A stretch of DNA of 58,654 nt. Origin: Girardia tigrina (lineage: Eukaryota). Below, in pieces: positions 11,216 to 58,654 of the stretch (position 1 is the first letter of the stretch; every line of letters starts with the position of its first letter). The notes beneath the pieces are model-generated. The model had not been told where the DNA came from and ran no database searches. It worked only from the letters and a program-made list of their open reading frames with translations. The DNA is taken from assembly GCA_001938485.1 (NCBI GenBank), contig MQRK01182744.1:2648-61301 (forward strand), read 5' to 3'. A program made the translations under genes and the position numbers.

Positions 11216-11699
11216 ATACAATTAATTGTATATAATTATAATTGTAATTTATAATTGTATATAATTATATAAACGATCATTGATCGTAAAAAACTATATA
11301 AAGATCGAAAATCATTCATTAAAAATAGTTGATAAAAAACAATAAAATCTGAAAAGGAGACGAGATAAATCACATTGTAACAGTGAAGATTAAAAGTAAT
11401 TAATAAAATTATAAAAACTTTCACAAGTTAATCGATAATTATTATTGAATTATTATTTTAAATACATATTGACTATATAACCACACTGTAAAGTGTGAGG
11501 CTTAAAAAATAATTTTTCTCTGAGTTGTCGCTAAAAGGCTCTCAGACGATAAATATAAAATCGGCCAGGGGCCAACTAAACACCACTTACATACTATTTC
11601 TCTTGTAATTAAATTGTAATATAGAAATATATCTTATCAGATAAAAATCTTGCGTTTTTTATTGTTCTTAATAAACACATAAACAACTCGACACTATAA

Positions 11700-12137
11700 T
11701 ATATGACATTGATATTATTGGAAACTGCTTGGTATTTCCAAAACAACAATTCATTTTTCAGCAAGATCTTGCACTACACCGTCCACTGTCGACATTTAAT
11801 TTCTTAAAAAAGAAGGAAGTCGACCTTTTACCACTACCAAGCAATTCACAGGACGCAAATTTTATCGAAAATGTATGGGGACTTTTAAAAAGGAAATTAC
11901 AGACGATAAGGTGCACATCGTCAGAACAGCTGTGAGTAGCTGTTCAAAAAATATGGTACGAACTATCAAAAGACTATTGTAAAAGTCTTGTTTAATCCAT
12001 GCCTAGGCGATTAAAAATGATAAAGGACATGAAAGGACATTCAACTAAGTATTGAAAGTTCCACATAATAAATGTTTTGTTAAAAATTGATCTTTTTCTC
12101 AAAAAATAAGTGGGGTGAACAGACTTATGAATCATAC

Positions 12138-26600: not shown

Positions 26601-29600
26601 CACAAGCATAATTTCCTTTTGCATCGACACAATTTTCTCAGCGAATAACGAGGTTTTTGAAGACATTTTTGAAGAATTCTGGAGGCTTTTCTCCCAGAAA
26701 ACTCTCCACAGCGGCGCTCAAATCATGTTTGTTGGCAAACGCCTGGCCACGCAAATGCTTCCTAATATGGTTAAACAGGAAAATTCGTGGCTGTATAGTG
26801 GATGCAAGAGTAAATTGAGCTCGCAACGCTCAATTGTGGCTATGGAAACGGTGCAAGTGTGGGTCGGAGCATTATCCTATAAAAAAGAGATCACACTCAG
26901 CTCTTGCGTCGTGCATTCCTTGCTTTCTACGGGATGGTGGAATAGTAAGAACTATTGAAATTCACGCCGGATTCAGTAAAGTCAGGCATAATAATGCCAT
27001 TAGCATCCCAAAACACAGACAGCATGAGAGCCTTTTGGTCGCAAGTTAAGGACCGCATTTTCAGTGAGCTGCTTTCTCTTGGTGGTTTCCATTCTTGCGA
27101 CTCTCTTTTAGATTCGTAGACATGAAGGGATAATGGTGTCTCGTCCACAGTGATGATATTATTAATGAAACTGTCTCTAACATTGATCCTGATCTGTAGA
27201 TTCTCCAAGAAGAATTCCAACCAAACGTCGTTGTCACATTTCCACCGCTAAGAAGCGTGGTAAAAAAAGGAACATAGTTTTCGAATACCACTTTCATTGA
27301 TGAGAGTATTCAGAGTGCTTTTGCTCACATTTAGACTAGTTGTGCGCTCTCTTGTCGTTATTATTCTCTCGTTTTGCACGATTATCTGCAGATTTTGCGC
27401 TAGTTTTTCATCAATTACCAAGGGTCTTCCAGATCTTTCTTCGTCCACCACGGAGGTTTTTCCACTCTGATATTAATTGAACCAACGATAAATTGTTTCT
27501 GTGGAAGACCACTCTTGTTGGTAAACATCTTTCAGTTCAGAAAGAACCTCTACTTTATTTTTCCTTTCAGAAAGAGAAGGCGAATAGCGCTACGGTATTG
27601 AATAGTTTCCAGTGGCATGTTAAGAATATTCGCAAAAATTGACTTACACAATAATAGATTATTAAAAAATAAATTTTCTTAACCTGTATATATTGATGTT
27701 TAAATATGTCTGTATCAATTTTTACTATTATTATTTCTATATTAGTCTCACGACTTATTGAGCACACCACGTACATTACGAATTGGAATTAGCCTTAATT
27801 AATGATTGAAAAGGTTAAGAATGTCTTCCATTATTTTTAGCACATTCTATGCATAATTTAATGAAATTTTAGAAGAATCTTTAAAGGTGTCATGGTCATT
27901 TTAAAGAACTTTATAGGAAATTTTAGTATTTTAGTTTTTCTATTGTTAAGGGTTATCTTTTGGAACAAGTCTTATCCTTCAATGTACCCCACACAAAATA
28001 GTCACAACTGGATAAAACTATACATCTGACGAGTCAACGTAATTCTGTTAAACATGAAATTCGATTTTCTGGAAAGTTTTTTACAAGCCAATTGCTTACT
28101 TTAATTGTAAAACGAGAGGAAGTTGAAACTGGGCTGAGACGGATTGAGTCGTTTGAGGGAGAACTTGATCATTAAGCAGTGATATATATTGTTTTGAAGT
28201 TAGGGTCCATATATGCACACTATGCTTGTCTTTGAAAAAGATTATTTTTGTACATTTATTGCAGCTAATTTTAAAACGTAATCCGAGTAAAGTGTCTTTC
28301 CGAAATAATTCGTATCTATAGATTTTTTTCCCCTAAACTTCATGCTTTGTTTTTTTGCGTACCCATTAACATGTATATCGGCCGCAAAGGTTATCTAGAG
28401 TTTTTTTCAGAAAATGTTAGTCAGCTGTGTCTAGATCAAAGCACGGACACAGAACAAACTACACAGTATTAAATCCGACTCATTTAACTCAAAGAACATC
28501 TGAATTTTATGAGCTTTGAATTCCTTTATGTGCAGGATTTTCGGAATTGAGTGGGGATTAATATATCATTTTCAGGCTGTCTTGAATGTATTCTGTGTTA
28601 GATCAGCTGTGAATTTCCGAATAAGTATGTTCTGTACGTACGTTATTCAGGCACGATTTTCGCCCGCATTTTGTTAGCGGATTTTCAACTTTACTAGTTC
28701 TTCAAATTTTACAAGAATGTCCTTGATAACATTGTCACAGTTTTCCGAATTGGTTAAAAAACCTCTCCCAAAGATCAGAAATACTATCGTTACCTTGACA
28801 GTTTATTTTGCAGGATTTATAATTTAACAGCAAAAACTCTATTTCATCTTTCAGGAGAAGCAGTCCTGTACTTCAGTAATTCTTGTATTCACGAGTGCAT
28901 TTTTTATTTGTTGAAAAAAATCTCTGTTTTGTAAAATATGGGTGTAATATTATATGTCCCTCTTCTTGTCTTGTTCGTACATTCCAAATTTCAATCTGGA
29001 AAACTGGATTGTCTGCATCTCTTCTACTTCTTCAACCTAAATAAATTCAGTACTCAAAATTTTAATATTATGCTTATAATTTAAATAATTTTTAATTTAG
29101 CTATTAAAGTCACTAGTGTCGCTATTTTAACCGGATAACTTTTATTTTTGATTTTTTCTTGTAGTACCTCAAGTCTCCATATTCAAACATTGGCAATACT
29201 CCTGACAACCATTGAAGCATCAGGTTTGTGAGACACTGAAGAATCAGAAATTATAAACCTCAAAAAACCTTATATTTTCCTGATTTTTTAATTATTCTTG
29301 TTGGGTTCTTGATCAAAATTATATTTCATTAACACCAAATTTTATTTCCATAACAATAACAATTATTTAAACATTTTTTGAGGGACTTTTCTTTTGTTTT
29401 CTTTTTTTGACCAGATTAATTATACATAAAAATACTGGATAATACTGATAATAATACTGATAACTTATTTATTAAAACGTTAATTAAAATTGAATTTATT
29501 TTTTGATTACGTTAATTTATATATTACGATTTTATTATTTTATAAAAATATTCAAAATACATTATAAAAATCCAAATAATAACTGTTTTATTTTAAGTCA

Positions 29601-32600
29601 TTTTTAAACGTATTTTGCAACAATTTTTAGTAATCTAAAATTATTTAAATATTGTTATTTCAATATTATTTATCTAAAACCAGTTAACTTAAATATAATT
29701 TTAGATCTTTTATAATATTTGAATGGTACATCTACTGTTAAAATTAAATTTCTTAATATTTTATTCATCGTTAATTGGTTAAACATTCAATTATAATTAT
29801 TCTTTTAATACAAATTGATACTATTTCAATTTTAAATAAACATTATGATTTTTTTTGTTTTACAACTCAATTTTTTTAAAAAAAATATTTGATTATAGTT
29901 ATTTTTTTAATACAAATTTTGAGTTACAATTACTTGTTATAAATATTAAAATTTTTATTTAAAACCTAATTTTATTTACAATGTGAGTAACAAACATTGT
30001 AAATAAAATTAGGTTTTAAATAAAAATTTTAATATTTATAACAAGTAATTGTAACTCAAAATTTGTATTCAAAAAAATAACTATAATCAAATGTTTTTTT
30101 TAAAAAATTATTACTTATTTATTTATTACTTATTACTACTTATTTATTTCCCAAAAAGTCAAATTCTAATAAATTAAATTTTAATTACAATTTTTATTAT
30201 TAATCCGAAATATTTTTTTTAAATTTATATAAATAAATCATTTGAAATTATTTAATTATAAATATGATATTACAAATTAATTATTCAAAAATTTAAGTCA
30301 CAAAAACCCCTTACAATTCTGAAATGCTTGGTTAGCCTAATGGTGGACACCACCATCATCTGTTAATGTCTTAAATTTATTATATAAATAATTTATATAA
30401 TTGTCACTTATTTATTAATGCAATTACTTAATTAAAATTATAATTCTGAATTTTTCGATAAATTTGCTTGAATATTAACTTTAAGATCAAGTGATCCGAT
30501 CACTGAGTGATCACACAGATCTCAGTCTGACATTAATACATTTTATATATTGATAAATCTATAATGAATTTAACCAACAAATGCGAATTGGCGAACTTCC
30601 TTAGGGAGCATCCATTAAGGACGTCCCCTTCTAAGGGGGGGAGGGGGTAACCACAAGGGGGACATTTGGGGACAATATGGAGGGGGGTCCAATTGTTAAT
30701 GGGACATCCTCCAGCTGCGCCTTTCATTAAAATCTAAAGATAAATTTCAGCTATCGTTTATCTTGTCATTTTTGTAAGATTTTCTGTTAGAGATTGATGT
30801 AATACTCAAAACCCCTGTTATCTGAATTCAATTTTCCCAATTCTCTTAGTAGAGTTGCAGCCTCCTACAACCCTACACTCCTTTATTATTAGAATACTGA
30901 GGATGTGAAAATACCATCTTCAGCCGCATTCGTTCACGGGGACATGTGAAATACAAGTCCTAGGGGATGTCACCCGGGGGGGTGTCTTATAAAAAGGGAC
31001 ATAAAGGGACAAGAGGGGAGGGATCAAAGTATGCTTATTTTTTATAGGACGTCCTTGATGGATGCTCCCTTATATCAAGTCCTTTAAATAATAATTAAAG
31101 GTAAAGTAATATAAATAATAAACTAATTAAAGTGCATTAATATAATTATTATAATTCGTGAAAGAACAAAACATGTATTTACACGAGGGAATAATCACAC
31201 TGTAGACGAATAATATGTATAAAATTAGAACGGGAATCTTTCGAATTTTGTCTAAAAACAAGATAAATACATAAAAGTGGGGCAGCTAAATATATAATAG
31301 GCGGTCAATTCTGGAATCTCAGACTGTTCGGAGAATGAAGATGTAGTTTGGTGGGATTATCTGATTTTCCAAGGGATCCGGATCTGGATTCGGTATATGG
31401 CTGGCGAATATAGCAAATAATTGATCAAATTGGTCTATTTTTGGTCTATTTTATGTTACAAAAAAAATTATGAGACCCTTATTATCTTCTTCACAGACCT
31501 TTCTTCCTTTACTACATGGTCTTGCACACTTTACCTATGTCATCAATGTTGCCGTCACATTAAAATATCCATTTAATAGTTTTTCGTTTATTTACTTCAT
31601 TAATTATTAATCAAACTGCTTTCATAAACATGAAATATTTTTAAGTTCAAATCTTCGACCATATGCTATTTTTAAGGGTCCGGTCGTACACATTTGTTTG
31701 AAAAGAAGTAAAAATGTTATGTTAGAAAAAATATTAAAATAACTGTAGATTTAATGCATATTTAATGATCTTTATTGTTTTTTGATGATTATCATTTAGA
31801 AACATTTTGATCTGGTATATATGTTAAGATTTACGAGGAAGGTCAATTAATGCTGGCATTATTTACCAACATTCATCCCATGTCTAATACCGAAAGTAGA
31901 ATGTCAAAAACCACAGAATCTAAATATTCAAAGCTAAGTCAACCAGCTCCAAGTGTTTGGAAACCAGCTTATCAAGAAGAACTTCAGCTCCTTGCATTAT
32001 CATCGTTAACAACTCTTATTCCAAAAATGCTTTCGAAATTTCAAGACCTCTGTGGAGTCAATCGGTTACTGATGCTTGTTGAATGGTGCATCAATGACGA
32101 TAGTAATTACCTTCTTTTGACAATCATATTTCGATAATGTCTAATTATTTTATAATTATATTTCATGTTCATTATTTCAGTCAGTTTTTCTGGAAATGGA
32201 AATAGTTTTCATGCTGCTGGCGGTCGTGGTAATAAATTAGCTCAGATGCGTTATTGTATGAGATTGATATTACGTATCGTCCGTGCTAACGATGAAATAG
32301 TTAATCAGGTTGAACAACTTTATTATGGGTATAGAATAAATTGATTGCATTTTCTTTAGGAATTTGTTGATGAAGGTTGTATCAGTTTGTTTATAGATAT
32401 CCTTAACAATGTCATAAAAAACAACGATTCAAATAGTGCCATTGACTTAGAAATTCAGTGTGATATGCTTTTTATTCTTGCGGCGTTGTGTGAAAGAGAT
32501 CCTCATCGGTTAGTTTCTAATTATATGTCTATCTAGTGATGACTTTATATTATTTATAATTTTATCTATTTACTTTATGATAATTACTCTATTCGTTAAA

Positions 32601-35600
32601 GCTTTGATAAGAGATACTTAATAGATCCAATAAATACGAAGATTAAAGTCACAAAAAGTTTATTTTACTAAATGCTTCTTTCCGTAGAATTAAAAGCCCC
32701 AACTTCTCGACCTTCATTTCCATTACTCTCAAATCCTCTTTGATTTCGAATATCTCGTCTAACTTACCAAGTTTGGTCCCAATATCTTTCAGTGACTCTA
32801 AATTCTCCAGTACTTTCAGGTACTTTTCTTCGTACTGGTCGTTGTCTTCGTATTTTCTCTTCACTTGCCTCTGTATCAAATAATTCATTTCTGAATCTAG
32901 TGAGAAGTACTATCTCGAACCGTTTACTCCTTAGATCTACCGGAAATGTTTTCTCTAAATCATCTATATCCATGCCTCTTTTTGGTCTCAGTAACAACTG
33001 TACAGTTACGTCCTTCTGGTTGTTGAAGTAACTCAATTCCTGTCCATCTTCCAATTGTTTGCCAGCAAATACTAATCTCTGCTGGTTCGCGAGAATCCTT
33101 TCTCTGTCTTGGATCTTTACTTTAACAATATGACTGCAGTAAAGAAATTGACTATCTTCAACGAGGCATTCATCACCCAAAACATCATCGTTCTCACAGT
33201 TTACTTGATATTTAAAAACCAATCTCTTTTTGGTGAACTTTTTTTAGATACGACTCTAGCATGACCACAGGTCTCGCGACAATCTCATTATTATTGACCA
33301 TTTCACTACCCATACCCAGCATTGACTTCGCAACATTGACGTCGGACTATTCAATTGGCAGAAATAACACTGTCTAGTTTCGTTTCTGAAACTTTACTCC
33401 CTTGTCTATGTCACTAAACACCTGGTCCTCCACTCGGAACACTATCGACTTCAGTGGATTGTCTTTACCGCTATATTCACTGAACATCAACCCATATGCT
33501 CCTACGTTCCTGGCGATTAACTCACACAAATAAATCGAAAATTCAAACACATCTTTCTGCTGTTTCGTCTAAAAATCCTTATGATTCCTTCCAAGGACCA
33601 ATTGCATGAAATGCGGTGTTACTCCTGGCATCTCCTACATTCTGCTCTTGAGGTGCTTTTACTTGAAATTAAAAGTTGATCATAAGCATCCGAGTTTCGC
33701 CATGTGTATACGTAATTATGTCAGATAATCTATCACTGTAGAATCACTCGCCATAGAGGCGTCACGTTGATCAGCGTTATAGTTCAAGAATTGATCTGTT
33801 GAAAATGCCGCCTGCTTCCTGGAATTATTATAACACAAATCACCGGACTTAATAATCACAGTTAATTTTGGCCCTAACAATCGCTTCCCCCATATCGCAA
33901 TAAAGGACGGAGGGTATCCCGAATTTTTATAGATATTATTACATAAAAAATAATTATATTTATTATAGTTAAAAATAATACACCTTACATCAAATAACGA
34001 TGTCCAAACACTGGTGGTCGGCCAATTGCGGCAACCACGATCTGCTGCCAATGTTTGAGTCTGGAGGGGGGTATTAGCACAAAAGTATAAATCCCAAATT
34101 TCAGAAATAAAGATCTTATTTTTATATCACTAATGAAACAATGTTTAACATAATAATCTATTTTTTATTTAGGAAAGAATTATTTGGCCAAGATGGTGTC
34201 AATGTTTGTATAGGATTTTTGAAGAACTGTTTTAAACTTTCAAAGAAAAGTTTTCAAGATCAATTAGTTTCGTATGAGCCGAATCCGGCTGAGTCCAACG
34301 GTTGGCAGAAGTTGATCATCGCTGTCATTGATGCGATTTGGGCTTGTATCATCGGTTGTTATGCCACCGAGCACATATTCCTCGATCAAGATGGGACATT
34401 TATGATTCTAGATATGCTTGAAGTATTTCCGCATTTATTGTAACGAATATTTTTAAAGATAAAACTAGATCTTACCCAGTGAATTATATCCGCAAGTACT
34501 TGGCTGTCTAGTAGATTTAAGTGAGAATGCCAAAGCATTAAGTCATTTAAGTGCATGGCGGGGTACGATGCTTAAAGACAAAGATCAGAATCTATTATCC
34601 ATAAAAGACACTCAAGTCCAGACTAATATTGCTCATCTACTTTGTAGAATATGGCGAGAAGAAGAAATTCGAATTGATGTTGAACGAGGGGAATATTCCA
34701 ATTTATTAGGTTGATTAATAATACATTTGGAATATTTTCGGATTTAAAACTTTAGATATTGACAGTCCATTAATGGGATCAGAACAGAAAAAAGATTTGG
34801 TTGTTCCTAGTTTACCAGCAGATCAACCCAGTCGATCGATTCTTGAAGTAAGTGAAAGTCTCAGATCCAATATATATTCTCTTCTCTCGCGTTTGGGATA
34901 CTTGGATCATCCTGGATTAAGGATCGAAGATCATGTTACTTTGACTATTATTGAGAGCTACTTGGAATTTAAGGTTTTACAGCTTATTTTAAGGTAAAAC
35001 TCAAAAATAATTTTTGTCTCAGATGGGTGAAGTATGGATGGAAATACAGAAAGAACTTGCAGGAGAAAATATTAGACCAATTTCGCCGGATGTTGAAGCC
35101 TTAGAATGGATTTCCCGTTGTATTGAGCAAGAAGGACTTCGAGTTTGCAAAATACAAGAAGAATTAGTTGAAGCTATGAACTCTCAGGAAAAGATGGAAG
35201 AAATAGAATTTTATAATCAAGTTTGTTTTTTTATGAAATTTTTAAATTCTGTGTTTATTTGTACTTGGAGCACGCTTTAATTAATGATCATGGTAAGGAT
35301 GTGTTACTTAGAGGGATATCTTGTAGAGAGTTTGTGAGATACATATACGTATATTTAGCAATATAACTAGTAATTGCGTTTCATTTATATGATTCCCTTA
35401 TGGGAAACGACTTTTTCGAAACAAAATATCACAATAATGAGGTAAGTTTAAAAAAGTGCTTGATCCAAAAAGATGCCTAGGTTTCCTTTCGACCAGTTTA
35501 TCAGTCCTGCAGTGGCCAAGTAGATAAGTAATAATATTCTAACAACATCGTAAAAAAGATGTGACATTTAAAGTAACATTAGGATTATTATTTGTGATTT

Positions 35601-37835
35601 GAGGCCATTCTTCTTAACTGTAATAAAATATTTTACATTGGTTCATTCTTCTAATTATTGTGCTGTTGTATTCATAATTTCGTCAAGATTTTATATGAAT
35701 TTTATATGAAAACAGAGTCGTATGTATAGGTGAAAATATTACTAACACGTTGACGTAAACGATAAAGTTCCATAGCTTCTTATGCGGATTAAATCAACAT
35801 AATCAGTTGAAAGTGGCAATGGTAGATCGCAAGTCTTCCTTGCATTGTGACTATCAGATTCTCAAGTATGAAATTTGTAGGCATGATTACAATAAATTCA
35901 AGTAGTTATAATTTCACAATGACATAACATTTTGTTGCTCAGTTATTACTTTGATCGCTACATATCTTGGCTATTGAACACATAAATAAAAATTAATTAA
36001 AATTATCGATAACTTGTTTTAATAATATTTTAAAAAATAGATAAGGTTGAAATATGATCTATTATGAAGTACGAGTTCCTATGTAGAACCTCAAAATCAG
36101 CGATTCGTGAAAGGTAATTTAAACCTCAATAATGAGTCTCGCAGTCGCTCAGGAACGAAGGTAGACAATGACGAACATAAAGTAACCGTGGAGTAGGATC
36201 CATCGCAATGTGCTCATGATTGATCGCTAACGTTTGCTGTTACAAAGCAAACAATATTGAATTATTAGTCTTAAATTGGTAAAGTAAAAAATTTAGATAA
36301 ATGGATTTCCTCATGAGTTGAATGGAAACCAGAAACAAAAGCATTTGAATGCTTGCTTGATGATGCTTTCTCGTTATAAATTTAATCACTTTTGAATCGA
36401 ATCGTCACTTGTGATGAATGGCAGATACTTGAGTCGGAACGTCTGCATTATCCCCCATACTCACTAGACCTAGTCCCTTCTGACTATTATTTCTTCGTCA
36501 ATTTAAACAAATTTTTGGTAGGAAAGAAATTCTATTTCGAAGATGTATTAAAAATGGTCTTCCAGTAATTTATAGATTCTCGCCAACCACATTTTTATTC
36601 AAATAGCCTCAACAAGCTGCCGCTCAAATAGCAAAAGTGTCGATAATATGGGCGCATACTTTGATGAATGACATAAATATTTGTATTGGTAAATTATCAA
36701 TTAACTCTGATATTAGTTCTACAAATTTCATACTTGACGAACTAATATTAAATGACGCCGAAAATGATTTACTACATTTTTAATTTGAGGCTTGTCTGAA
36801 CTAGGCTTCGTCTAGTCCCTTATTATGTGCATCTTGATTTATCCTCCAGCATTTTAGGCTTTCATGCAGTTAAATTTTGTGATCCTAAATGATTTTTTAT
36901 TGTTTTTTAGTATAATTTTGCTTATTTTCCTATTAGGTCTCATATTCGGGGTATTTTTTTATAACAATTGAGTTCGTTTTTCCCCAGTATCATTACTCTT
37001 GTCTGAGCATGTACCGGAAAGTTTTTGATTTAAAACTCCAAAGCTTTTCAAACAATGGCGTCCTTGATCTTTTAACCTAATTTCACATATTTCCTTTTAA
37101 CGATTTCTGTGTTGAATTCCGGTGTTTTTAATCCGGTACATAATTGTTTGGTGATATAATCTGTAACCTTCAAGCTATGCAGATAGATCAACAAAGCAGT
37201 GTATTTTGGGGGTAATGCTATTTGTAAGGGTTTAGTGTTTAGAATCAGTAATTTGTTAAGTTAAATGATGTATCACGACAATATAATTGTCTCAAATATA
37301 TTGTCACTAAAAATTCTTTGTAAAAATTGTTTAAAATAAGCCTTAATAAAATGGGATGGATCTATGTATAGTAATAACGGTTTTAAATCAAAATTGATAA
37401 ATATTAAAATGAGAATTGTTTATTTTACCAAGAATTAATTGATATAATAGTTAAGAGAAAATCATAGACAAAAGGAAAAGAATATTCAACACTTCCAAGA
37501 ATTCGTGGAAAGAACGTCCAACCATGAGAAACTGAAACAGGCTAAACAAAACCAATCCGTGAACATTGAGGCATCGAGAATAAAGCTAAAGAATCCAGAC
37601 AAATCAACTGTGTTCCATAAAACAGATATTGATAACATAAATGTTACAGTATGACTATAATGATTGTTATGATTATTATGATGATAATTATTAGAAATTC
37701 TGTGCTGAATGTATACAAATTGATTCTACTCCCTTGCACATTCTGGGAGGCGCTGAAAACGCCAAGGAAATGGTCGGAAGTGTGATCATTAAACCTAATG
37801 TGACACTCCCACTAAAGGATTCGTTGATTCTTTGA
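14661..37835 (+). CDS. CFAP69: Cilia- and flagella-associated protein 69 (ARM-repeat), 19 exons, about 981 aa
   Basis: GT-AG exons, phase-consistent, 2946 nt in total: 14661-14768, 16519-16575, 16631-16696, 18878-19067, 19120-19218, 19676-19749, 19805-19883, 22372-22538, 25849-26035, 26078-26199, 31829-32102, 32181-32308, 32360-32508, 34173-34422, 34469-34709, 34756-34973, 35023-35220, 37451-37648, 37695-37835. Recognised CFAP69 motifs: [89 protein letters not shown] follows the stop. Confidence 0.93.
15460..16050 (-). mobile_element. MULE (Mutator-like) transposase C-terminal remnant, partly duplicated
   Basis: FSPKTWSVY...[13 protein letters not shown]...[15 protein letters not shown] (RTNN..E..H...HP.IW.F motif). 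A second partial copy lies at about 15460-15520. Confidence 0.7.
16924..18433 (-). mobile_element. Internally deleted hAT (Buster/Charlie-type) transposon
   Basis: TIR CAGGGGTGGGCA / TGCCCACCCCTG; 8-bp TSD AAATAGAA (16916-16923, 18434-18441). Transposase dimerisation-domain remnant [21 protein letters not shown] at about 17940-18380 (-). Confidence 0.9.
17127..17735 (-). CDS. C2H2 zinc-finger ORF (202 aa) carried inside the hAT element
   Basis: Two intact C-x4-C...H-x4-H fingers (CMYSSC...HTKNVH; CPMENC...HLLIDH) and one degenerate finger (CPFTHY...HGTMYH). Stop-free ATG-initiated ORF; expression unknown. Confidence 0.5.
   Translation of the reverse strand: MIEQRKKYTKMLQSHIKRVQCMYSSCFKSFAEQRELRRHTKNVHTVMTPQHQIGDKPFQCPMENCHKTYKTDGWLKRHLLIDHRTQGSTSGTTASQNKANEGCTKSSNVIAMHDVSVPLNGTAETDPGVIPRVVLDFRLSNTNDVGIFLCPFTHYTKSIYAAKALQNHGTMYHDWSFLTGKPKRVRALKPRILASKAVRESQ
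20182..20932. mobile_element. Possible solo LTR
   Basis: Starts TGTAGTGA and ends ...TCACTGA, with TATA-like and AATAAA motifs inside. No matching TSD found. Confidence 0.35.
22817..23456. mobile_element. Pogo/Tigger-like (Tc1/mariner superfamily) MITE
   Basis: TA|CAGTGAAAGCCGCTTAATAGGACCAC ... GTGGTCCTATTAAGCGGCTTACACTG|TA, with repeated subterminal CTTAATAGGACCA motifs. Confidence 0.9.
23580..24590 (+). mobile_element. Decayed mariner
   Basis: HTH-like start, [17 protein letters not shown], and ...DLAPSDFIF motif. Many frameshifts. Confidence 0.7.
24780..25700 (+). mobile_element. Decayed mariner
   Basis: Remnants ...[19 protein letters not shown]; related to the 26548-27771 family. Confidence 0.55.
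26548..27771 (-). mobile_element. Near full-length mariner transposon (pseudogenised transposase)
   Basis: TA-flanked TIRs CGTAGTGCACCCAATATGTCGTGAGACTAAT / ATTAGTCTCACGACTTATTGAGCACACCACG. Motifs [39 protein letters not shown]. Confidence 0.92.
29869..30109. repeat. Near-perfect long inverted repeat (about 115-bp arms, 9-nt loop 29985-29993)
   Basis: ...TTTTATTTACAATGT-GAGTAACAA-ACATTGTAAATAAAA...; arms are complementary with only a few mismatches. Confidence 0.9.
30604..31069. mobile_element. PIF/Harbinger (Tourist-like) MITE
   Basis: TTA|GGGAGCATCCATTAAGGACGTCC ... GGACGTCCTTGATGGATGCTCCC|TTA; 3-bp TTA TSD. Confidence 0.9.
32649..33222 (-). pseudogene. Ubiquitin-like fragment (Ub residues about 26-76) fused to a coiled-coil ORF inside an intronic insertion
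   Basis: [51 protein letters not shown] (33126-32974) aligns to ubiquitin. It continues with MDIDDL... and is frameshifted into ORF 32649..32888. Confidence 0.75.
35853..36746 (+). mobile_element. Internally deleted mariner
   Basis: TIR-like CAAGTATGAAATTTGTAG / CTACAAATTTCATACTTG; motifs IVTCDEW and [16 protein letters not shown]. Confidence 0.85.
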
Positions 37836-38323: not shown

Positions 38324-38475
38324 TTTGATAGTTATAATTAAAAAATTAAATTGTTGTTTCTGGAAAAAAATCATCAAAATGTAATTTGTTTAAATAATCA
38401 AAAATAAACAGTTGTGATTTAATTTCGCGTTTTCAATTTTTGAATATCATTAATAATTAGAATTAGCATTTTCTC

Positions 38476-39060
38476 ATGAGATTATTTTCTCCGACAAATC
38501 AAAAGCGATTTACAAATGTTTTCGATGTGAAACTAACCGTAAAAACCGATAGAAATCATCGTCGATTTGAAATAGCGTGTTTTCCGAATAAAGTGATAAC
38601 TCGGCGACAAAAACTTGAATATCAAATCAGTGAAACTCTGCAAAACGAGCTGATTTACACGAATGTGTCGAAAGCGGAAATCGCGAGCAAAGACAATTTG
38701 TGACTAGTAAAACGTTGAATCCGAGTACGAAACTATGCTTTCCACCGTGTGTGATAAAAAAGTGATTCACGATTGTCACATCAATTTGGAACCCAATAAA
38801 TCCGCAAAACAACAATCTCGACGTTATTCGAATGTTGATAAAGAAATTGAATGTTCCGATCGATCTCACTCTTTTATCTGACAAAATTATTGTGCCACAA
38901 AAACCAATTAAATCAATCAAATGAGGATTATTGAGTTATCGTGAAAATATTTTCTTTGATGTGCCGCAAGAGCACGATTTACAGATGGAGGCGATTTTCG
39001 AACCGGAAAATTATGATTTATTTAAATAAAATTTCAAAACGAAATGCACAATCGAATTAC
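38476..39060 (+). pseudogene. SBDS: SBDS (Sdo1) ribosome-maturation factor pseudogene, internally deleted
   Basis: MRLFSPTNQKRFTNV...RFEIACFPNKV...TNVSKAEIASKDNL*. A shifted frame then gives VTSKTLNPSTK...IHDCHINLEPNKSAKQQ..LDVIR (SBDS domain 2). About 40 aa are missing between the two, and there are further frameshifts. Confidence 0.85.
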
Positions 39061-39239: not shown

Positions 39240-39560
39240 TAAGTCATAGTAAGGAAAGGTCCTAATGCTTTACGAGGGGTATAGATATCGTTGTGACAAG
39301 CGAAAGCGAGATGGATCATCTTCATTGAGATGTGTCAAACGAGAGTGTGCCGGAAGACTGAGGAAAAAAGCTAATGAAACAGTACTGAATATTACTGATC
39401 ACACATGCATCCAGACATTTCTAAGAATGAATCTAAAAAATCAAATCAAATATACGTTAACGTACTGTAAACAGTGTTGAAAAATCTCGACAAATTATTT
39501 TGAACATCACAAAAGGAGTTTCCCTGGAAGCAGTTTAACTGTTGGCGTCCATTATATAAC
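39240..39560 (+). mobile_element. MULE-associated FLYWCH zinc-finger remnant
   Basis: LYEGYRYRCDK...SLRCVKRECAGRL...NITDHTC (FLYWCH pattern). Confidence 0.6.
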
Positions 39561-40229: not shown

Positions 40230-40620
40230 ATTGCTTTGTGATCTGTTCACTTTTTATCATTTTTTCATGTAAGCAGTAATTAAAGAGTCGATAAATATAG
40301 AATATTGACAAGAGTTCCTTTTCAATTATTTAATAACTTGTTTCATGTGCTGACAATGTGTGTAATCCAATGTTCTCTTCTCTTCCTGATTATCCTATCT
40401 GGGACAATACTACACCTATGCTGTCAAAACTAGCGACCGTATCTAGGATTAACGGCTTCTTTAAAGGCTGGAGACTTAATATTTGTCCTATTTTCAAAGC
40501 TTGCTTCAAATCCTGGAATGACGTTTTGTATGAGGTTATTTCAAACTAGTTTTTCTTTACTCAGCCCCTATATTTCTTCTAAAATTTTGGTTTTTTTTCG
40601 CTTATCCATTGATAAACCTT
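40230..40620 (-). mobile_element. Ty3/gypsy pol RT-connection/RNase H remnant
   Basis: SFQDLKQAL...PLILDTVASFDSIGVVLSQ...LSAHETSY..IEKELLSI (TDAS...GAVLSQ...EKELLA motif). Confidence 0.8.
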
Positions 40621-41332: not shown

Positions 41333-43077
41333 ATAAATACATTTTTCAATAGATGAGTTTTGCTTTTCTTAATTTTCATCCGGATTGAAGTTTATTAATA
41401 ATAATAGTAATAAATATTTTTGAAAAATATTTGAGATTAGGCTTTTTTAAGAAATTTATTATTATACATGTTTCGGAATTCATTTTTCATCATCAGCAAT
41501 TATAAGGTAATATATAAGATAATAAAGTGTTAATTATTTGGAGAGTTTATCAGTAAATATTGAATTCTTCAGGATGTTAATGTATGTTAATGGCCAAAAA
41601 AGTTTTTTTAAATAAAAATTGAGAATTGAGATGGCCATATTTGGTACATTTGTATTATTAATTAATGGGTTGTAGTTTCTTATCAATTATGATTCGAAGA
41701 ACTGCCGTTCATAATGTTGCTCAAAGCCCTTCTATAAAACAGAAAACTAATCTTTTGAAATATGTACAATAAATATAAATAATAATATGAAACAATTAAT
41801 TTAAAATAAATTAAATAAAAAATAAGCATTGAATTAAGTGAAATAAAACTTATAATATAAATTAAATAAAACTGAATTAATCTCATTTCAATTCAAATCC
41901 AGACAAAGACTTCTTATTCCAGCCACCCAAATAAAATTCACGAATCAATCGGCTCGCTCTGATTGGTCAACTAATGACGTTGGGACATGAATCAAAAGGG
42001 AAATTTAATTTTACTTATTTATTAGATTACGTAATTGAAAGTTTATCACTGATTTGATTGTTATTTTGTTACTGAAAGAATTTCGACTTATCCTTACTGC
42101 AAATAGAAAGATTTGTCACTGTTTATTATTGTTTTTTGTTATCGACAAAGTTTTGTCTGATAGTTATTTTGAAATAAAAGAAATAAAACTGTGTTTAGAA
42201 AGAATTATGCAAATTCAAAATTAGCCTAATGAATAATGCCCAGCATGACCAAGAACACCATGACTGCTATTTCCGGAAAGTATCTGAAGCAACCTGGAGA
42301 CTGTCGGAAACATTTTGATCAAAATTTAATCAAAATTTATCAGTATTATTAGGACTTAATCGTGTAAAAAATTGAGAAATCTTTCAAAAGTTGTGGATTT
42401 AAATTTCCCTAATGGATAGTATATGTACTCTCCAAATTTATGTTTAAAACTAAAAAGAAATATTGGTTGTATCAATAAAACAATAAAATTAAATATTTAC
42501 AAATAATAATTATTATTAACATAAATTCCATAATAAACCACGAAAATATTGTCCAAAATACACTTCTCCTTACTGATTAAGGTTGTTATCACCTTTTTAT
42601 TTAAATAAAATTTTTAGGGAGAATATTTAGCTCACAATAAAAAATAAATAACAAAAGTATTTACATAAAAATTATGTTTTGTGATCTTTACATGTATAAA
42701 AAGTTCTGAACCTACTCGAGATTTAAAGATGAAATAACTCTAAACATCAAAGTTTTGTGATATTACAAAATATAGATCTCTTTATAACTATAAAACTTTT
42801 TATCTGATTAATCTGATGATCTTTTATAGACTTAAAATCGAAATGTACTTTGATTTTCAAAAGATTCCTGGAAGAAATTTTGATATTATTAATTATTGTA
42901 TTTACTGGCATTTTAATCAAATTTATTTATTTTAATTAAATTTGATTTTTGAGTTTGATTGATTATGGAGAATTTAGAGCTAATTTAAATCTGGTTTTGC
43001 CAAAATAGTTTTTTTTTAATTTGAAAGTTTTAAATAAAAGTAAATAAATACAAAAGTTTTAAAATTAAAAATGATTA

Positions 43078-43540
43078 GGGAGCATCCATTAAGGACTCCC
43101 TATAAAAAATAAGCATATTTTGACCACTCCCCCCTCTTGTCCCTTTATGTCCCTTTTTATGAGACATCCCCCGGGGGACATCCCCCCGAAAACAGATTTC
43201 TCTTATATTCAGAAGAATGTATAGAATATTGAATTTCTAGCTTTAAAGATTAGCTTGTATATAATTTTATTTTGGCTGCAATTTAAGTCACATATTAAAA
43301 AATAGAATAAAAAAATCAAATACTGTTAAAATAACGAAAATGTACATAATTCCTAAAGAAAAAATAAATGACTTAATTATTATAAAAGAATTGGGGAAAT
43401 AGAATTCAGATAACAGGGGTTTTGAGTATTACATCAATCTCTAACAGAAAATCTTCAAAAAATGACAAGATAAATGATAGCTGAAATTTAACTTTAGATT
43501 TTAATGAAAGGCGCTGCTGGGGGATGTCCCCTTAACAATT
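43078..43540. mobile_element. Second, inverted and truncated copy of the PIF/Harbinger MITE family at 30604
   Basis: TTA|GGGAGCATCCATTAAGGAC...; shares blocks in reverse complement with 30690-31069 (e.g. GAATTCAGATAACAGGGGTTTTGAGTATTACATC). Confidence 0.85.
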
Positions 43541-50270: not shown

Positions 50271-53200
50271 TTATATTTTTTCTCTATCTATAAACACTGG
50301 TGGAATATCATCATTAATAGGACCAAACTTTTCGGCTTCCCATCTTTTTTCGGGTTCCTTTTCTTCATCTTCTTTCTAGAAATGCAAAATTTTAATTTGT
50401 TCTCAATTTAGGAACATATACAATGATTCTTAATTTAAAATTCCGATTGCTTATAGAAATATGATAGAATGAATATGAATATTTTATGAAGTTTTGTTTT
50501 CTGCATTTTCACTATTATACACGTAATAATTAAGTTTTTGAAAATATTTCGGGGAGGAAGGATTGATCCCGATACCCCCTCCTTAGATACCGCCTCACGT
50601 AATTCTTTTATAAAATTCTAATTAAAAATTTTATTTTATATTAAATTATCTCTGAAAATGAAGTTAAAATACATAAAGGGTTTCTAAAAGGTTTATTAAA
50701 TATTTTGAATTATATAAAGAGTTAAATTTATTTTTTATTATTATACCCTCATTCTTATATTTAACTAAAATTTCGATATCACTTTGAAATTTTTAATAAC
50801 ACAAATTTCGATGTATCTCTTTTTTTTAATTAAAAAATTATCAATTTAAAGAAACTTTCTATTGTTTTTATACAAAACAAAGTTAAGATTAAGGACCGAA
50901 ATCTTCAATCAGTAATATGTTTGTATAGAAAGGATAATTTTCATATATCAGTTCAAACATTTTCAAACATGGTTTTTAACAAAATATATTATTGAACATA
51001 CCTTTTTTCCTTTTTTAATCATTCCATCTTGTTGGCAATGGACGTGGCCGAATACGTACTTACCCTTTTCTATTATCTGTAATTATTAATTCATTTTAAA
51101 TGTTTAGAAAAAATACACTTTCTTAAATAAATGAAAAATATTTATACCTGTTGCACATGCGATTTTATTGCAGAAATGATAAAAACTATTTGCAAAGTAT
51201 ATGAAAAAAGTTCAGGGCAGTCAAAGAAATATAACGTAATATATTCGTCTAAAAAGTGTGTTTGTTTGTATGTTTGTCGGTCACGCTATGAAATGTGACA
51301 TTGCACAGGAACCTGAGTGAATGCACTTAAGAACATAGTTAATCTGGATAGCCCGCATCGAGAGGGTTCTGTCGGTACATCAACTTTGCCGAAAGACGCT
51401 TGGAAGCAGACGAAATCGACCGAAAATCGTGCAGATCGTTAAATTGTTAAGTCAATACCAATTTTGAATAATGACAATTTGGAGGATTCCTACAAGGAAT
51501 TTCGTGAATTTTTTTATGAAAACTTTTTTATAAAATACTAATTTATTTGATAAATGACGATTTCTATCTCTTATTTACTTATAATATTGCTAAACACAAT
51601 TTAGTATAACTTTGCAAATTTTCGTTATTAATAAATAATATCGACATTTAATGAATGGATGTCACGAATTTTACTCCTCAAAATCAAAGGAGTGACACTG
51701 ATATGGAATAGAAAACATTCATGTTTGTAAAGTGTTCACTATGCACATCATTAAATAAGAATGAATAATTTATAAAATTATTAGAAAATATAAATATTTG
51801 CATAATTCATTAAGAATATCGAATGAAATTTTCGTTTCCTCTCATTAGGAAAAATATCTCAAGTGATTAGTTTCGTTGGACTTACGATTTTTGTTATTTC
51901 CGATAATGTTTTTGTAATTGTTAATTATTTTTTCACAAAAACATTATTTTGACTTCTCCATTTTAAAAAATTGTAGTAGACTCAAACGAAAAAGATAGAC
52001 ATGTCGTTTATAGTATACCTTATTGAATTTTATTAATAATAAAACATTTTATTAATAGCAATCAACTATTATTTTTTAATTGTTTCAACAAAGTGAACAA
52101 CGAGAAAATATCATGCAAGTAACAATTTAATTAATTAAAATTCACTACACGTTTCGTTCTCGACAGAACATCATCAGGTGGATCGTCGATTGAGAGAACA
52201 ATTATTAAACATTCAAAACAAATTGAATCGTCTGTATCAAACAGAAATTTTCTTTATCAGAATTCTGATTGGATAATATAAAATACTAATAAATATAGTA
52301 ACTATATATTTCAAAAACCCCAATTTAACGTTTAATAATTATGCCAAATATTAAATTCACTTCAACATTAAAAAACTAATAATATAAAAATGTCTTATGA
52401 TAAACAATTATTCGAACAAATTTTCATTTAAAATGATTTTCAGATTTTATTTAAAAATTCTACTTATAATTTCGGTAATAATTTTAAAAAAATATTAATT
52501 TAATTTTAAAAATGATTTAATTTAAAGAAAAACATTTTTCTAATGAATTTAAAAATAAGTTAAAAGTTATTTACTTTATTAAAATTTTAAAATATCAAAA
52601 TATCATATTAAAATATCAAAAAATTTAAAATTCATCAACAGTAATTTAAAATGCAAACTATGCTCTAATAACTATTCATCGAGAACATCCAAAATATCAA
52701 TTTTCCATCTCGGTGGGAGAAACACATTTCCAAATACTAAACTCAAACAAAATTCATCATTCTAATTTAAACTTACCAAATTTAAAATATTCTTCACATA
52801 TATTGTTTGATTGTAAAAAGGGGGAGGGGTGATCAGACCGTCGATTGAACAACATCACCATTGATTCAAAGAATACCTCTATCACAAATAATGCATTAAC
52901 GGTCTAGTGACGATTCAGTTTCTTTCAAACATTCGGACGGTGCTGTGGAAATATACAATGAAAATTTAAAAGATTTGATAATTGTAAAAAAAGAGCCTAT
53001 TGTCAAATCGACATAGACGGATCGGGAACGATAACCGCTGAAGAATTACGAGCTTATAAGTCCGAAAACAACTATCAAGAGGATTTCGTTCAAAAATGAT
53101 TCAACCTATTTTGATAAAAAATAATACTGGAAAAATATTGTTTTTCTTGTATCCGATGATTAAATCATTGAAAATTTAGCACAATATCATTGCTTCTAAA

Positions 53201-56200
53201 TCATATACAAAATTCACCAAGTTTGCACTAAATATTGACATTTATTTTCTTCGAATTAAGCTCGGAAAAATAATTCATTAGATGAATTCAGTATTATAAC
53301 GTCAACAATGTCAAAAACTAATGAGGGAGATGTTCTTCAAATAATTAAAAAGGCTCGTGATTTATATGCAAACTCGTTCAATGAACAATCGACATGTATC
53401 AAGCCAAATTTGGATATTGTTCTTGTGGCCACATGGCACTGTATTATTACAAACGGACAATATTGGGCATTTTATTCGTTTGAACCTAAATCATCGATTG
53501 CAGTCAAAGTAGATAATTTAATCTATTTGATGTGGCACACTCCATATACTGATTGTTGATGAATCGAATTTACTGTTTTTTATATTATATTCAAAGAATT
53601 TTAAATATATTTTAAATAAAAGTTAAAAAAATAAAAAGATAATAAAAAACAAAAAAAGAAAAATAACAATTTGAATATAAAATTCAAGTAGATTCGAGTT
53701 CATGCCATGCGGCGTGAGGTCATTTTGACCTAATTTGACCCATTGTGATTGGTCAAAATTTTGTCTGGTGGCCCAATTTGATTGGCCAATTTAAATTTGT
53801 GAAATTGTTCTCGATGATAATTTATGCAGCCAGTTTTTTTATGATTTTTTTGTGAATGATGTTCGAGAAATTTGTGAATATTACAGATTAAAAGTTCGTT
53901 GTTTCAAAGGTTCAAAATGTATGGACCGTCACGTTACGCATTCAGATAGTGAAGATGATAATGACGATGATAATGAATTTAATTGGATAAAATCAGTTTC
54001 ATATATGAACAAATCACTTGAAAGACATTTGCGGAATGGATCAACTATCGCAATGAGAGTTAGCTCAATATATACTGCTGGAGTGTTCCATGCATATTCA
54101 ATTCACAGAAAAAAAATGGATTTGATCTTGACTCTTACGAACTTAAACATACGGATGATGATAATGATCGAATAAGCGAGTCAGGGAACGAGGGTGATAA
54201 AAGTGAGATTACGTTATGTTTCTCTCCTCCCTGCCCCGGAACCTCTGATTTCCCAACCCTGGAAACCCGCAGCCATGCTGCGCCCGCTCTCATACCAACA
54301 TACATATTTTTTAAAAATTAAATAAAACATAATTTTGTTAAAAATATTACGTATATAATAAATATACAAATATTTAAAGAAAATAATATAAAATTAAAAA
54401 GGTTTTTTAAATATACATTTAAAACTAAAAACAAATTTTCACTAATATAATAAACAAAAATATATAGTTAATTATTCAAATTTAAACATAATTGACTTAT
54501 CACAATGTCAAATAAAATTATTAAACATTGTGACAGGTTTACTATTTCCCTTTTGAACGTTTATGAACCGGTTATGATGTCTGATCAATAGTGACTCGCG
54601 AAACTGCCTTACCAATTATTATTTATTAAATGTTATAAATTCATTAAAAAATATCCAAAAGAATTATGGATGTGATTCTCCCAAAGAGATTTATTGGTAT
54701 TTTTTAATTTTTAAAGCAATTTTGGAAATCGAATTTTCAAATAATCATTATTATCTTCAAGCGATTATTACTGGAAATCAACACATAATTTAATGATGAA
54801 AAATGATGGAGGGGTCTCTTCAACCAAGTCTCCGGTTACATTTTCATTGCATTCATTCCTTTCTTATTCAGAGAATCTTTCACTGGGATTTTATTTCCCA
54901 TAATTCGATTTATTCTATTATATTACAATAATTCTCAAGTAAAACTTTTAATGATTATATTTTAAAATAATTATATTATCATTAATACCTAATGACATTT
55001 AATATAAAAATCAAGTCGCAGTTTATGTTTAAATTCTTATTTATACACATGTTACTGCATTTGTTTTACTTTTGATATTACTCTTCTAGTTTTGAAATAA
55101 CTTGGTTGTGTCAGATGACATCCTCCTAAATGTATCTTATAATAATTAAGATGACCAAACTCAAAATTCCAAGGTTTACAATTTAAATTATATGTATGAG
55201 TAATTAGTGAAAATTTTCAATTCACCAAGTAATTTACAAAAATTTATAATTTAAAATTTTAACAAAACTTAAATAACTACGTAAAACATAAAAATTACAT
55301 CAAGTTTATTATGAGGAGGTAATTAATTTTTGGTTCGCTGATCAAATTTAAATAGTTTTAAAAATATTATTTTGAATTAAAATCAAATTGAAAAATTTAA
55401 AAATTAATTTGAATTGAAAAAAACATTCTTTTTTAAAAACTTTTATTAATATTTGTGAAAATATTTTTTCTATTTTTGAATTAATTTAATGATATGATTA
55501 AAAGATTAAATATTTAAAAAAATAAAAGATTGAATATTAAATATAACGTATTTTCAAAATTTCTAAAATAGTAAAATATTAAAAAATCGTTTTTGAAAAA
55601 AACAACCCAAAATTAAAAAAAACAACATATAAGATTTCAGTTGAAAAACAAAATTATAAAAACAGAATAAAAGTATTAAAGTAAAAAAAACATATTTAAA
55701 CATTAAATAATTTTTAAAAAATTTTAATATATGTGAAATTATTTTGATAAATATTTTTGTTTATAAATTTAAAAAAGTTGAATGTTGTTTTGACTTCATT
55801 AAAATTATAAATATATGAAAAAATATTTGAAAATAGAGATCAGCGGATTAATTATTAATTAGGAAAATAGTTGGAAAATTTGTTTGAAAGTTGTTTTATA
55901 ATTATTAACAACATCAATATGAGTTTTGCAACATTTATTATTATCGCAAGCGCATTCACTATTTGACATCTCTCTTGATCAATATATTTCTGAGTTCAAA
56001 CTAATTATTTTCAATAAATGAAAATCTGTTAATAAAAATTATTAATTATAAAGAATGTAATTGGTTGAAATTAAATCTAAACATTTTTAAAAAAGAACAT
56101 ATTAAATTAATATATTAAAATTTTAAATTACATTAAAAAATAAATAATACATTCAAAAATTATTTTAAATCTTTTTACTTTAAAATTAAATTATTTTTAC

Positions 56201-58149
56201 TTAGTGGGAATCAAAGAAAATATCAATCATCCATCTGTGTAGGAGAGGCATAATCCGAATCAACACACAACATGCACAATATCAACACACAATTCAAAAC
56301 ATTCCTCACAATAATAAAGAACGTCACAAACACTTCTCAAATTTATGGAACTAAAAAGTAAAAAAATGATTTTTTAAAAAACTGTATATAATTAAAATAA
56401 ACAAAAATCGTAAGTTAAAAAGTTTACATAATTAAAACCAATTTATTTTAAAAAGAAAATATTTAGTAAACATTTTGAAATAATTAAAGAAGTAAAAAAA
56501 AGGATTCACAACTGTAACCTTTTCGATATAGAATGTACTAAATACATAGTCTAAGTTTTTCAAGAATCTGTAACTGCTACAAAACTTTGAATAATATGAC
56601 ATTTGAATTTGTGAGGTTTTAAAATATTATTTGTCGGACTTTGCTGATAATAATCATCATTAAATTAAACATTTTATTAGGTTATCAAGTATGCAATTTG
56701 TAGGCATGATTACAATAAATTCAAATATTTATAATTTGACAATTACTTCACATTTTGTTGCTCAGTTTTTTTTTGTTTCAAACTATTAGGAAGTACGAAT
56801 TTCTACGTAGAACCTAAGCATCAGAAAAAACATATAAAACATCAATAGCGTGTTCGTATACAATGCTACTATGCAGCAGGCAGACTCAAATTGGTTTAAG
56901 AAATTCGTGAAAGGTAATTTTAACCTCAATAATGAGTCTCGGGGTTGCCCAGGAACACTGGTAGGTAGTTATGACCTTAAGGCAATCATAGAGTCTGATC
57001 AATCCCAAAGTGCTCATGATATATAGCCAACGTTTGATGTTACAATGCAAACAATATTGAATCACATGGATCAAATTAGTAAAGCGAAAAAGTTGGATAA
57101 GTGGATTCTACATGAGGTGAATAAAAAGCAGAAACAAAAGCTTTTGGATGCTTGTTTGGTGATGCTTTTCGTTATAAATGTAATCACTTTTGAATCGAAT
57201 AGTCATTTGTGGTAAGAAGTACATCTGATATGATAATCACAAACTTTAAGCAAGCTGGAAAGACACGAATTAAGCACTGAATCACAGTTCAAAGTACAAC
57301 ATTCATCAAAAGAAGCTGGTGGTGAGTGTTTGTTGTGTGTTGAAAGTGTAATCCATGATGATTTCATGAAACCTGGTTTGCTGATAACAGCAGATGTCTA
57401 CTGCAACCAATTGAAAGATGTGATGCAGAAACACAAAGTAAAAACAGAGGCCCTTGTAAACATTTAAATAGATTAAATATCATAAAATTATTATTCAAAT
57501 TTACTTCATTGTCTTTCCAATATCCGATATATTTGTGGTTTGCATGCACGAGTTGTCCGTGTCCTTCCATCTTTCCCTCAGTCCATACTCCCTCATATCT
57601 ACTACCATTTACTGCATAGAAGTAAATTCCTTGTCCGTGTCTTTTGCCATCTCGCCATTCTCCTTCGTAATAATCTCCGTTAATATAATAGTATTTCCCT
57701 ATGCCATTTCTTTCATCGTTTGCCCAATCACCTTTTATACTTATAAAAAGCATCATAAAGATGTTAACGATACCTTCATATTTACTTCCGTCTAAATAAT
57801 AGAAAATTCCTTTTCCACATTTTATGTTTTCCTTATATTCACCAATATAACGAGCTCCACTTTTAAATCTACGTATTTTAAATTATATCATTTTCCCGAT
57901 CATTTTATCCTTTAAAAACCAACATATATGTACCATTTCCATCGCGTTTTCCTTCCTTATAAAAACCTTCATAAACATCCCCATTAGGCAGTCTGGCTTT
58001 TCCAAATCCGTGTCGCTCTTCTTTTTCATTTCTTTCACCAACATATGTCTGGTTTAATTACGATAAAATCATTTTACTGTAATTTAATAACGAACTCCCA
58101 AGTTGGGTAATCCTTCTTCCTCCATATTTTCATCTTCAATATCAGACAT
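50271..58149 (-). CDS. RSPH1: Radial spoke head 1 homolog (MORN repeats), 6 exons, about 226 aa
   Basis: Exons 58149-58096, 58048-57924, 57868-57774, 57731-57505, 51076-51002, 50375-50271; all GT-AG, phase-consistent, 681 nt. Protein: MSDIEDE...[27 protein letters not shown]...[11 protein letters not shown]...GSRYEGVW...HANHKYIG...[14 protein letters not shown]...[11 protein letters not shown]...*. Confidence 0.92.
52140..52183 (-). ncRNA. Minimal type-I hammerhead ribozyme (Penelope-like element 3' terminus)
   Basis: - strand: ATCCAC-CTGATGA-T-GTTCT GTCG AGAAC-GAAA-CGTG-TA-GTGAAT. Intact core, perfect 5-bp stem II, stem I CAC/GTG, GUA cleavage triplet. Confidence 0.8.
52992..53559 (+). pseudogene. 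Tegumental-allergen-like (TAL; EF-hand + dynein light chain) pseudogene inside RSPH1 intron 4
   Basis: [22 protein letters not shown]...EDFVQK*FNLF/DKNNTGKI: EF-hands with TGA at 53097 in place of a Trp, plus a frameshift. Then a DLC-like domain ...[19 protein letters not shown]...YLMWHTP. Confidence 0.75.
56677..57460 (+). mobile_element. 5' part of a mariner (same family as 35853-36746)
   Basis: Shares CAAGTATGxAATTTGTAGGCATGATTACAATAAATTCAA and internal blocks with that copy; motifs [10 protein letters not shown] and [10 protein letters not shown]. Confidence 0.8.
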
Positions 58150-58351
58150 TTTCGTTGGCCTTTTTTTAGTATAAAATAAGATTTAAAAGCAATTTAATAT
58201 TAATCAATATTTTTATATTTTATATTGATTTACTGCTTTTTATCAGAATTTAACATTTAAATATAAAATAAGGACTTATGTTTTGAACATTTTTCTTATC
58301 ATATTTTTCCAATTATTGTTTTTCTGTGAAAAGCGTAAACCATATTTTAGG

Positions 58352-58365
58352 TAAACCATAGCATC
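58352..58365 (-). promoter_or_regulatory. Degenerate RFX X-box, about 200 bp upstream of the RSPH1 ATG
   Basis: - strand GATGCTATGGTTTA versus X-box GTTGCTATGGTAAC. Confidence 0.35.
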
Positions 58366-58558
58366 GATAAATTTCATTTGACTTCTTCTTTCGTTGATCA
58401 GAACCGATGTCATACTGGCTAATAATTCATTGTTAAATTGTCCTAAAGTTTTTTTTGGTCTTTTCGTTCATTCCGACCATTCTCAACTTCCTTTTCCTTC
58501 CTTCCAAAGTAGGGGAAAAATGTATGTTCTCCACCACCCCCCCCAGGGGTTGTAATTA

Positions 58559-58654
58559 GTTACCGTGGTTGCCATGGCAACGGTCGCGGTTACCATGGCA
58601 ACGGTCGCGGTTGCCATGGCAACGGCCGCGATCACCTTAGCAACGGTCGCGGTT
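58559..58654. repeat. 21-bp tandem repeat, each unit carrying an RFX X-box
   Basis: Unit GGTTGCCATGGCAACGGTCGC. X-boxes at 58568-58581 (GTTGCCATGGCAAC), 58589-58602 (GTTACCATGGCAAC), 58610-58623 (GTTGCCATGGCAAC) and 58631-58644 (ATCACCTTAGCAAC); a fifth starts at 58652. Confidence 0.9.

Follow-up and report, generated by a model that had tools for sequence, protein, structure and literature searches.

Several described systems resemble parts of the locus that we report here, which closes the 58,654-nucleotide stretch of Girardia tigrina DNA that was analysed as a whole (hereafter the window). The likeness to the RFX X-box promoters of ciliary genes, with the several-box cases of HEATR2, C. 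elegans F25B4.2 and the yeast RNR genes, lies in the consensus site. In the available parts of PMC4168999, PMC3245922, PMC3414849 and PMC10530576, these promoters are further like our array in that they carry multiple sites, of which one has only one good half, no more than 500 bp from a motile-cilia gene. HEATR2, for example, carries two X-boxes within 500 bp (PMC4168999, in part). In the accessible text such promoters hold one or two dispersed and conserved sites, which at HEATR2 lie 15-162 bp apart. The array described here instead holds at least three to four boxes arranged head-to-tail, with a shared spacer, in a GC-rich island.

A second group of relatives is formed by the enhancer arrays of viruses and retroelements, such as the 21-bp repeats of SV40 and HTLV-1 and the Su(Hw) array of the Drosophila gypsy element. 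They share with our array short GC-rich direct repeats, one host-factor site in each, and a position near the start of the terminal region in a mobile element; here, however, the factor would be RFX and the element is a candidate. Tandem repeats close to the ends of TIR transposons are usually transposase sites. The window itself contains a MITE-like element with such subterminal repeats (Table 1), and its likeness to the array consists in GC-richer repeats of 16-21 bp located tens of bases from an element end. The two nevertheless differ, since they share no unit sequence and neither an inverted partner nor a target duplication is visible at the array. Connections between RFX proteins and mobile DNA were found in the available parts of two papers, neither of which describes an array there: RFX1 is listed among the factors for the LTR of a simian endogenous retrovirus (PMC10968565), and overexpression of RFX7 raised several mouse element transcripts (PMC13144441). 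Finally, the promoter VNTR MNS16A at hTERT also combines a minisatellite unit with a transcription-factor site near a promoter, and it is described as variable in length and as influencing expression (PMC5438627, in part), whereas our array is represented by one sequence only.

Both components, promoters with X-boxes and element ends with tandem factor-site arrays, are known, and only their combination at this locus is unusual. Among the titles and abstract openings listed we found no X-box minisatellite or RFX-array element in the literature, a search whose scope lay outside most subscription papers, the older RFX1/EF-C enhancer work and supplements. Calling the locus an undescribed system, as the preliminary description suggested, overstates what 88 visible bases at one locus can carry.

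These 88 bp are the last bases of the window. Tandem Repeats Finder describes them as a repeat of period 21 with 4.2 copies, 83% matches and 63% GC. The units start at 58568, 58589, 58610 and 58631, follow one another head-to-tail without indels and end in three bases of a fifth unit; the array is therefore a minisatellite in form, with head-to-tail units in the range of roughly 10-60 bp. The spacer GGTCGCG is found in three of the four units and is one base off in the remaining one. The 21-bp repeat with its near-constant spacer, as first described, was borne out, and the array is cut by the window edge. None of 200 shuffles folds as well as the stretch (z -4.44), which is expected of any palindromic repeat. 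No further copy of the unit or its flank was detected by blastn in 58.5 kb of the window, and a 13-bp match at 13236, accompanied by a weak box at 13463, proved unrelated to the array once aligned.

Table 1. Positions of the array, its neighbourhood and the compared elements, numbered as in the window
Feature	Position	Strand	Remarks and basis
LTR-type element	5610-8831	-	direct repeats of ~460 bp, 94% identical; TG starts; 5-bp target duplication; 46% GC
TA-flanked MITE-like element with 28-bp inverted ends	22817-23456		in CFAP69 intron; 16-17-bp tandem subrepeats at both ends
RSPH1 orthologue	51002..58149	-	ATG 58149; four exons to 57505, fifth ~51002-51076; intron ~6.4 kb
AT-rich stretch between RSPH1 ATG and island	58150..58509	none	360 bp, 26% GC; composition
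15-base purine tract (14 purines), then TG at 58521	58506..58523	+	resembles polypurine tract/LTR start (putative role)
C-run and G-run at start of GC-rich island	58529..58549	none	GC change point 58529
Partial unit just before unit 1	58559..58567	+	9 bp, left part of box with one change; sequence inspection
21-bp tandem array	58567..58654	none	4.2 copies visible; 62-63% GC; cut by window end
X-box 1, perfect palindrome	58568..58581	none	approximate-match search and strict consensus
X-box 2, palindrome with one base changed, within strict consensus	58589..58602	none	approximate-match search and strict consensus
X-box 3, perfect palindrome	58610..58623	none	approximate-match search and strict consensus
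Degenerate box 4	58631..58644	+	right half-site intact, left half altered; loose consensus only

Units 1 and 3 open with the perfect palindrome GTTGCCATGGCAAC, confirming the two copies reported earlier, and unit 2 departs from it by one base. In the available parts of PMC3414849 and PMC4168999 this palindrome is listed as a consensus RFX site. When up to three mismatches were allowed, it was matched six times in the window, three of them in the array, against an expectation of 0.84, and none of 100 shuffles reached six. The strict X-box consensus GTNRCC N0-3 RGYAAC, as printed in PMC10530576 (in part), has three loci in the window, all of them in the array (three of its four units); in 20 Markov simulations the average was 0.1 loci per window and the highest count 1. 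The earlier identification of the units as RFX sites is hence upheld by their match to a published consensus, but the count of at least four X-boxes is not upheld in full. Box 4, in which 5 of 14 positions deviate from the palindrome, fails the strict consensus as well as the Drosophila consensus and fits looser consensuses only, which by chance also match several other places, so that the array consists of three strict X-boxes and one half-good one. A loose nematode-type consensus was found at 8 loci in the window with 5.45 expected. A MYB-type hexamer overlaps all four units; with 73 occurrences in the window, and since it largely follows from the end of the X-box, we do not consider it a separate signal. 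Because the DNA specificity of RFX is conserved across animals and fungi (PMC10530576, in part), RFX would probably bind the array sites in vitro.

We confirmed that the array lies upstream of the motile-cilia gene RSPH1, at the distance of about 420 bp first given. The product of this minus-strand gene contains MORN repeats (Pfam), and a protein search returned 85 matches among 113 candidates, of which the best named ones were RSPH1 proteins at ~50% identity; among the RSPH1 matches the highest identity did not exceed 59%. Against solved structures, two MORN1 chains came first by way of repeated stretches, and RSPH1, in third place, was aligned without a break along query residues 5-123. The first residue of two named RSPH1 orthologues aligns at 58149, which places the first X-box 419 bp upstream of the ATG. 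The gene seems to be whole, since a further exon far downstream (Table 1), whose splice sites were taken from the sequence itself, shows a weak match (E 0.07) to the conserved C-terminal motif.

Between RSPH1 and the array we observed two direct copies of a 10-bp word at 58335-58360, 16 bp apart and one base from the forkhead consensus; a strict forkhead scan does not match them. A 63-aa minus-strand frame at 58279-58467 was considered as a coding exon and rejected, its Pfam match being below the cut-off (E 0.072) and its Atlas recognition low; its codon score was uninformative. Directly before the GC island, 120 bp on the plus strand (58402-58521) read as an open frame flanked by a pyrimidine-rich acceptor and a consensus donor. 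This stretch could be an exon of a divergent gene, although it is only a lead, as the splice-edge filter behind it returned five pairs, none of them a homology-mapped exon.

The last 700 bp of the window contain a single sharp GC step, at 58529, where GC content rises from 0.29 to 0.62. For comparison, GC content is 0.295 in the window, 0.26 at 58150-58509 and 62% in the island. The G- and C-runs that had been noticed ahead of the array are indeed present at 58510-58549. Just before the island, a purine tract is followed by TG, as at the start of an LTR. Such purine tract-TG junctions occur three times in the window on both strands, including the one at 58506-58522, whose bases can also be read as a splice donor at 58522. 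The filter that retrieved them missed the true tract of the window's LTR-type element, and one of its two other matches sits in a MITE-like piece. For this reason, and since no element body is found leftward, we take the tract and TG as a weak sign only: should a 3' LTR follow the tract, the element body would be expected on the left side, but RSPH1 starts there after 360 bp. LTR primer-binding sites start with TGG. In the minus-strand reading, as a 5' LTR, no TGG-type primer site follows the CA at 58521, which excludes that orientation only. A partner inverted arm for the island was found neither among the 25 of 129 inverted pairs listed for 55500-58654 nor by blastn in the window, and the visible part, which ends 134 bases after the TG, holds no terminal repeat pair, target-site duplication or element gene; the other end of an element would lie beyond the window.

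Mobile DNA is abundant in the rest of the window, and many of its other GC-rich islands fall in it. We listed 16 transposon-like pieces, some of them without a family call, which amounts to a chance of ~0.24 of finding an element end in a given 500 bp. An insertion near RSPH1 would therefore be unremarkable; the first mapped exon of CFAP69 also has a transposon-like piece within ~500 bp. The LTR-type element (Table 1), a complete one, contains gag-like frames without a Pfam match and no visible pol, and is apparently non-autonomous. The MITE-like element in the CFAP69 intron is a local precedent for tandem arrays at element ends. Two other MITE-like pieces, at 30602-31073 and 43075-43540, are related to each other, with inverted ends rich in G/C runs and TTA flanks. 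Decayed pieces of mariner/Tc1-type transposases were seen at 56838-57467, 36103-36413, 26930-27247 and 11675-11932; the first of these is located in the long RSPH1 intron, with 81% identity to the second along 311 bp. We also observed an RNase H-like retroelement piece (40393-40545, minus strand) and a FLYWCH piece (39253-39477, plus strand).

We tentatively read the array as one end of an inserted repeat, perhaps an LTR, with an amplified RFX site in it, an account to which we give somewhat less than an even chance. The island from ~58510-58529 onwards would be the left end of an interspersed repeat that inserted ~370 bp upstream of the RSPH1 ATG, most plausibly the start of an LTR (its U3-like part) and otherwise the subterminal region of a DNA transposon. 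Within this end, a 21-bp unit with an optimal RFX site may have been amplified by slippage into a minisatellite. Host RFX dimers could then bind the sites, and the array might serve the element's own transcription in RFX-positive cells, namely ciliated cells and the male germ line. Should RSPH1 be affected, in either direction, this would be a by-product of the insertion. Several observations favour an element: the GC step at 58529, the frequent coincidence of GC-rich islands with mobile DNA, the array-bearing element elsewhere in the window, a GC-rich spacer unlike the AT-rich flank, and the lack of protein relatives for the array frames searched. Of the two alternatives raised in the preliminary description, enhancer or transposon, the transposon is our best reading, as it fits the composition and context better.

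The rarity of the unit constrains any account of its origin. The chance of a strict X-box in a random 21-bp unit is 0.7-4 x 10^-4, so that its place beside a ciliary gene calls for either a high-copy family or selection. Either X-boxes serve the needs of an element family, one sufficiently frequent to insert beside a ciliary gene, or the array arose out of the X-box of RSPH1 itself. According to the latter explanation, the gene's own X-box, or that of a shared head-to-head promoter, was duplicated in place, and the resulting homotypic RFX cluster drives or tunes RSPH1. We regard such a host-born promoter minisatellite as rather unlikely, even though it would account directly for a unit that is rare by chance yet located beside a motile-cilia gene. 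It is also consistent with the absence of any strict X-box nearer the ATG than the array in a scan of the whole window, and of any RGYAAC half-site between 58150 and 58560. Moreover, all six substitutions among the units keep the loose X-box consensus, with a simulated probability of 0.05-0.12 under a consensus that was picked post hoc, and X-boxes no more than 500 bp from the start, often two of them, are known for a motile-cilia gene (PMC4168999, in part).

On the other hand, a sharp-edged island of 62% GC is unlike its 26% GC flank. In mouse, motifs could be recovered de novo at -250 to +50 of the start, and the centre of the bound sites was just upstream of it, whereas here the boxes are at least 419 bp from the ATG, a distance that, being counted from the ATG and not from the start site, does not decide between the accounts; the part of that account covered does not name RSPH1 as a target (PMC7498320). 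The lack of a nearer X-box at RSPH1 may also mean little, as the region 17800-18900, ahead of the first mapped exon of CFAP69, likewise contains no half-site, with the caveat that this may not be the first exon of the gene.

The premise that RFX acts on cilia genes is reasonable for a flatworm host, given that RFX motifs show enrichment at cilia-module promoters in a planarian (PMC12660999, in part); RFX is unmentioned in the part covered of the main text of the planarian genome paper (PMC11410931). More X-boxes need not mean more activation, since repression by a distal X-box, with activation by the proximal one, is described in C. elegans (PMC3245922, in part). Nor does the 21-bp period provide evidence of the helical phasing proposed in the preliminary description: 5 of the 36 other tandem rows with a period of at least 14 are also within 1 bp of a multiple of 10.5, and 21 bp equally make up seven codons.

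This last point bears on a further explanation, namely that the array is a low-complexity coding repeat, for instance a Gly/Arg/His/Asn repeat belonging to a divergent gene or to the gag of a retroelement, whose likeness to the X-box is accidental. Three frames are open through the array (58513-58653 and 58556-58654 on the plus strand, 58483-58653 on the minus strand) and there are no indels among the units, both in favour of this explanation. The GC3 of the array frames, 0.47-0.71, resembles that of the window's gag-like frame (0.58), but not that of host exons (0.31). The plus-strand Gly/Arg frame, however, begins behind a stop codon and lacks an ATG upstream of the array. Protein searches covered two of the three open frames, the third (33 aa) being too short, and revealed no relatives, which for such short queries is weak evidence. 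Specifically, the plus-strand Gly/Arg/His frame had two matches among 1.84 billion representatives, both to unrelated long-repeat proteins that matched elsewhere in composition; none of 45 candidates scored, and there was no usable Atlas match. For the minus-strand frame none of 5538 candidates scored, and no Pfam family was found for the array frames. In the codon test, true exons (z -0.33 to 2.81, n=16) could not be told apart from candidate frames (z -1.06 to 1.8, n=11). We consider a coding origin improbable.

Quite improbable, finally, is a neutral minisatellite, in which a hairpin-prone unit expanded without function, or a scaffold-end misjoin that set the array falsely beside RSPH1: the folding (z -4.44) might favour slippage, and the array is cut by the window end, presumably the contig end, in a window of unround length with two N gaps, both of them next to a run of TA or AT, but both versions leave unexplained why the unit should be an optimal X-box, and a prokaryotic or vector origin is without support, with no loci in two scans of bacterial and archaeal genomes (185,579 genomes) and only chance-level matches in phage and plasmid records (best E 0.03). 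No Rfam match to a structured RNA was obtained in the window.

Among the other genes of the window, a CFAP69 orthologue (18848-34994, plus strand) extends over at least 16 kb and is the second motile-cilia gene in this stretch. The window scan placed no strict X-box near it, with mapped exons that do not include the first. One of its introns contains a ubiquitin-like remnant (32764-33243, minus strand), probably a decayed copy. We also observed a BTB-domain exon (1707-2852, minus strand), which we take to resemble a voltage-gated potassium channel, a C2H2 zinc-finger frame (17127-17798, minus strand) and SBDS exons (38467-38878, plus strand). Introns in the window measure either 40-60 bp or several kb. 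The long RSPH1 intron holds, on the opposite strand, an EF-hand frame followed by a dynein-light-chain frame (52962-53559, plus strand), for which 'calcium binding protein' and CaBP4 chains rank before ordinary light chains among the matches. We assume that they belong to the liver-fluke-type tegument calcium-binding family of flatworms, which agrees with an AT-rich flatworm as host. The confinement of this family to flatworms is not established by the available part of PMC1913519. A stop in the EF-hand frame at 53097-53099 indicates that the gene may be broken or hold an unrecognised intron.

Returning to the inserted repeat as our preferred reading, a more far-reaching version of it would be a flatworm transposon family with a terminal array of optimal RFX sites that would have it transcribed in ciliated or sperm-forming cells, and whose copies beside ciliary genes such as RSPH1 were kept as enhancers replacing the native X-box, with the number of units setting expression; we judge this version distinctly improbable. 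If the array does belong to a dispersed element, it would be an example of mobile DNA that uses RFX to exploit the cilia and sperm programme, and would offer a test, in an invertebrate, of transposon-supplied enhancers for an ancient gene set. If it is instead host-born, it would provide a natural series on how the number and spacing of X-boxes set expression, an effect called unclear in the available part of PMC4168999. If neither holds, the locus would caution that motif-based screens for cilia genes can be misled by perfect X-box matches within repeats.
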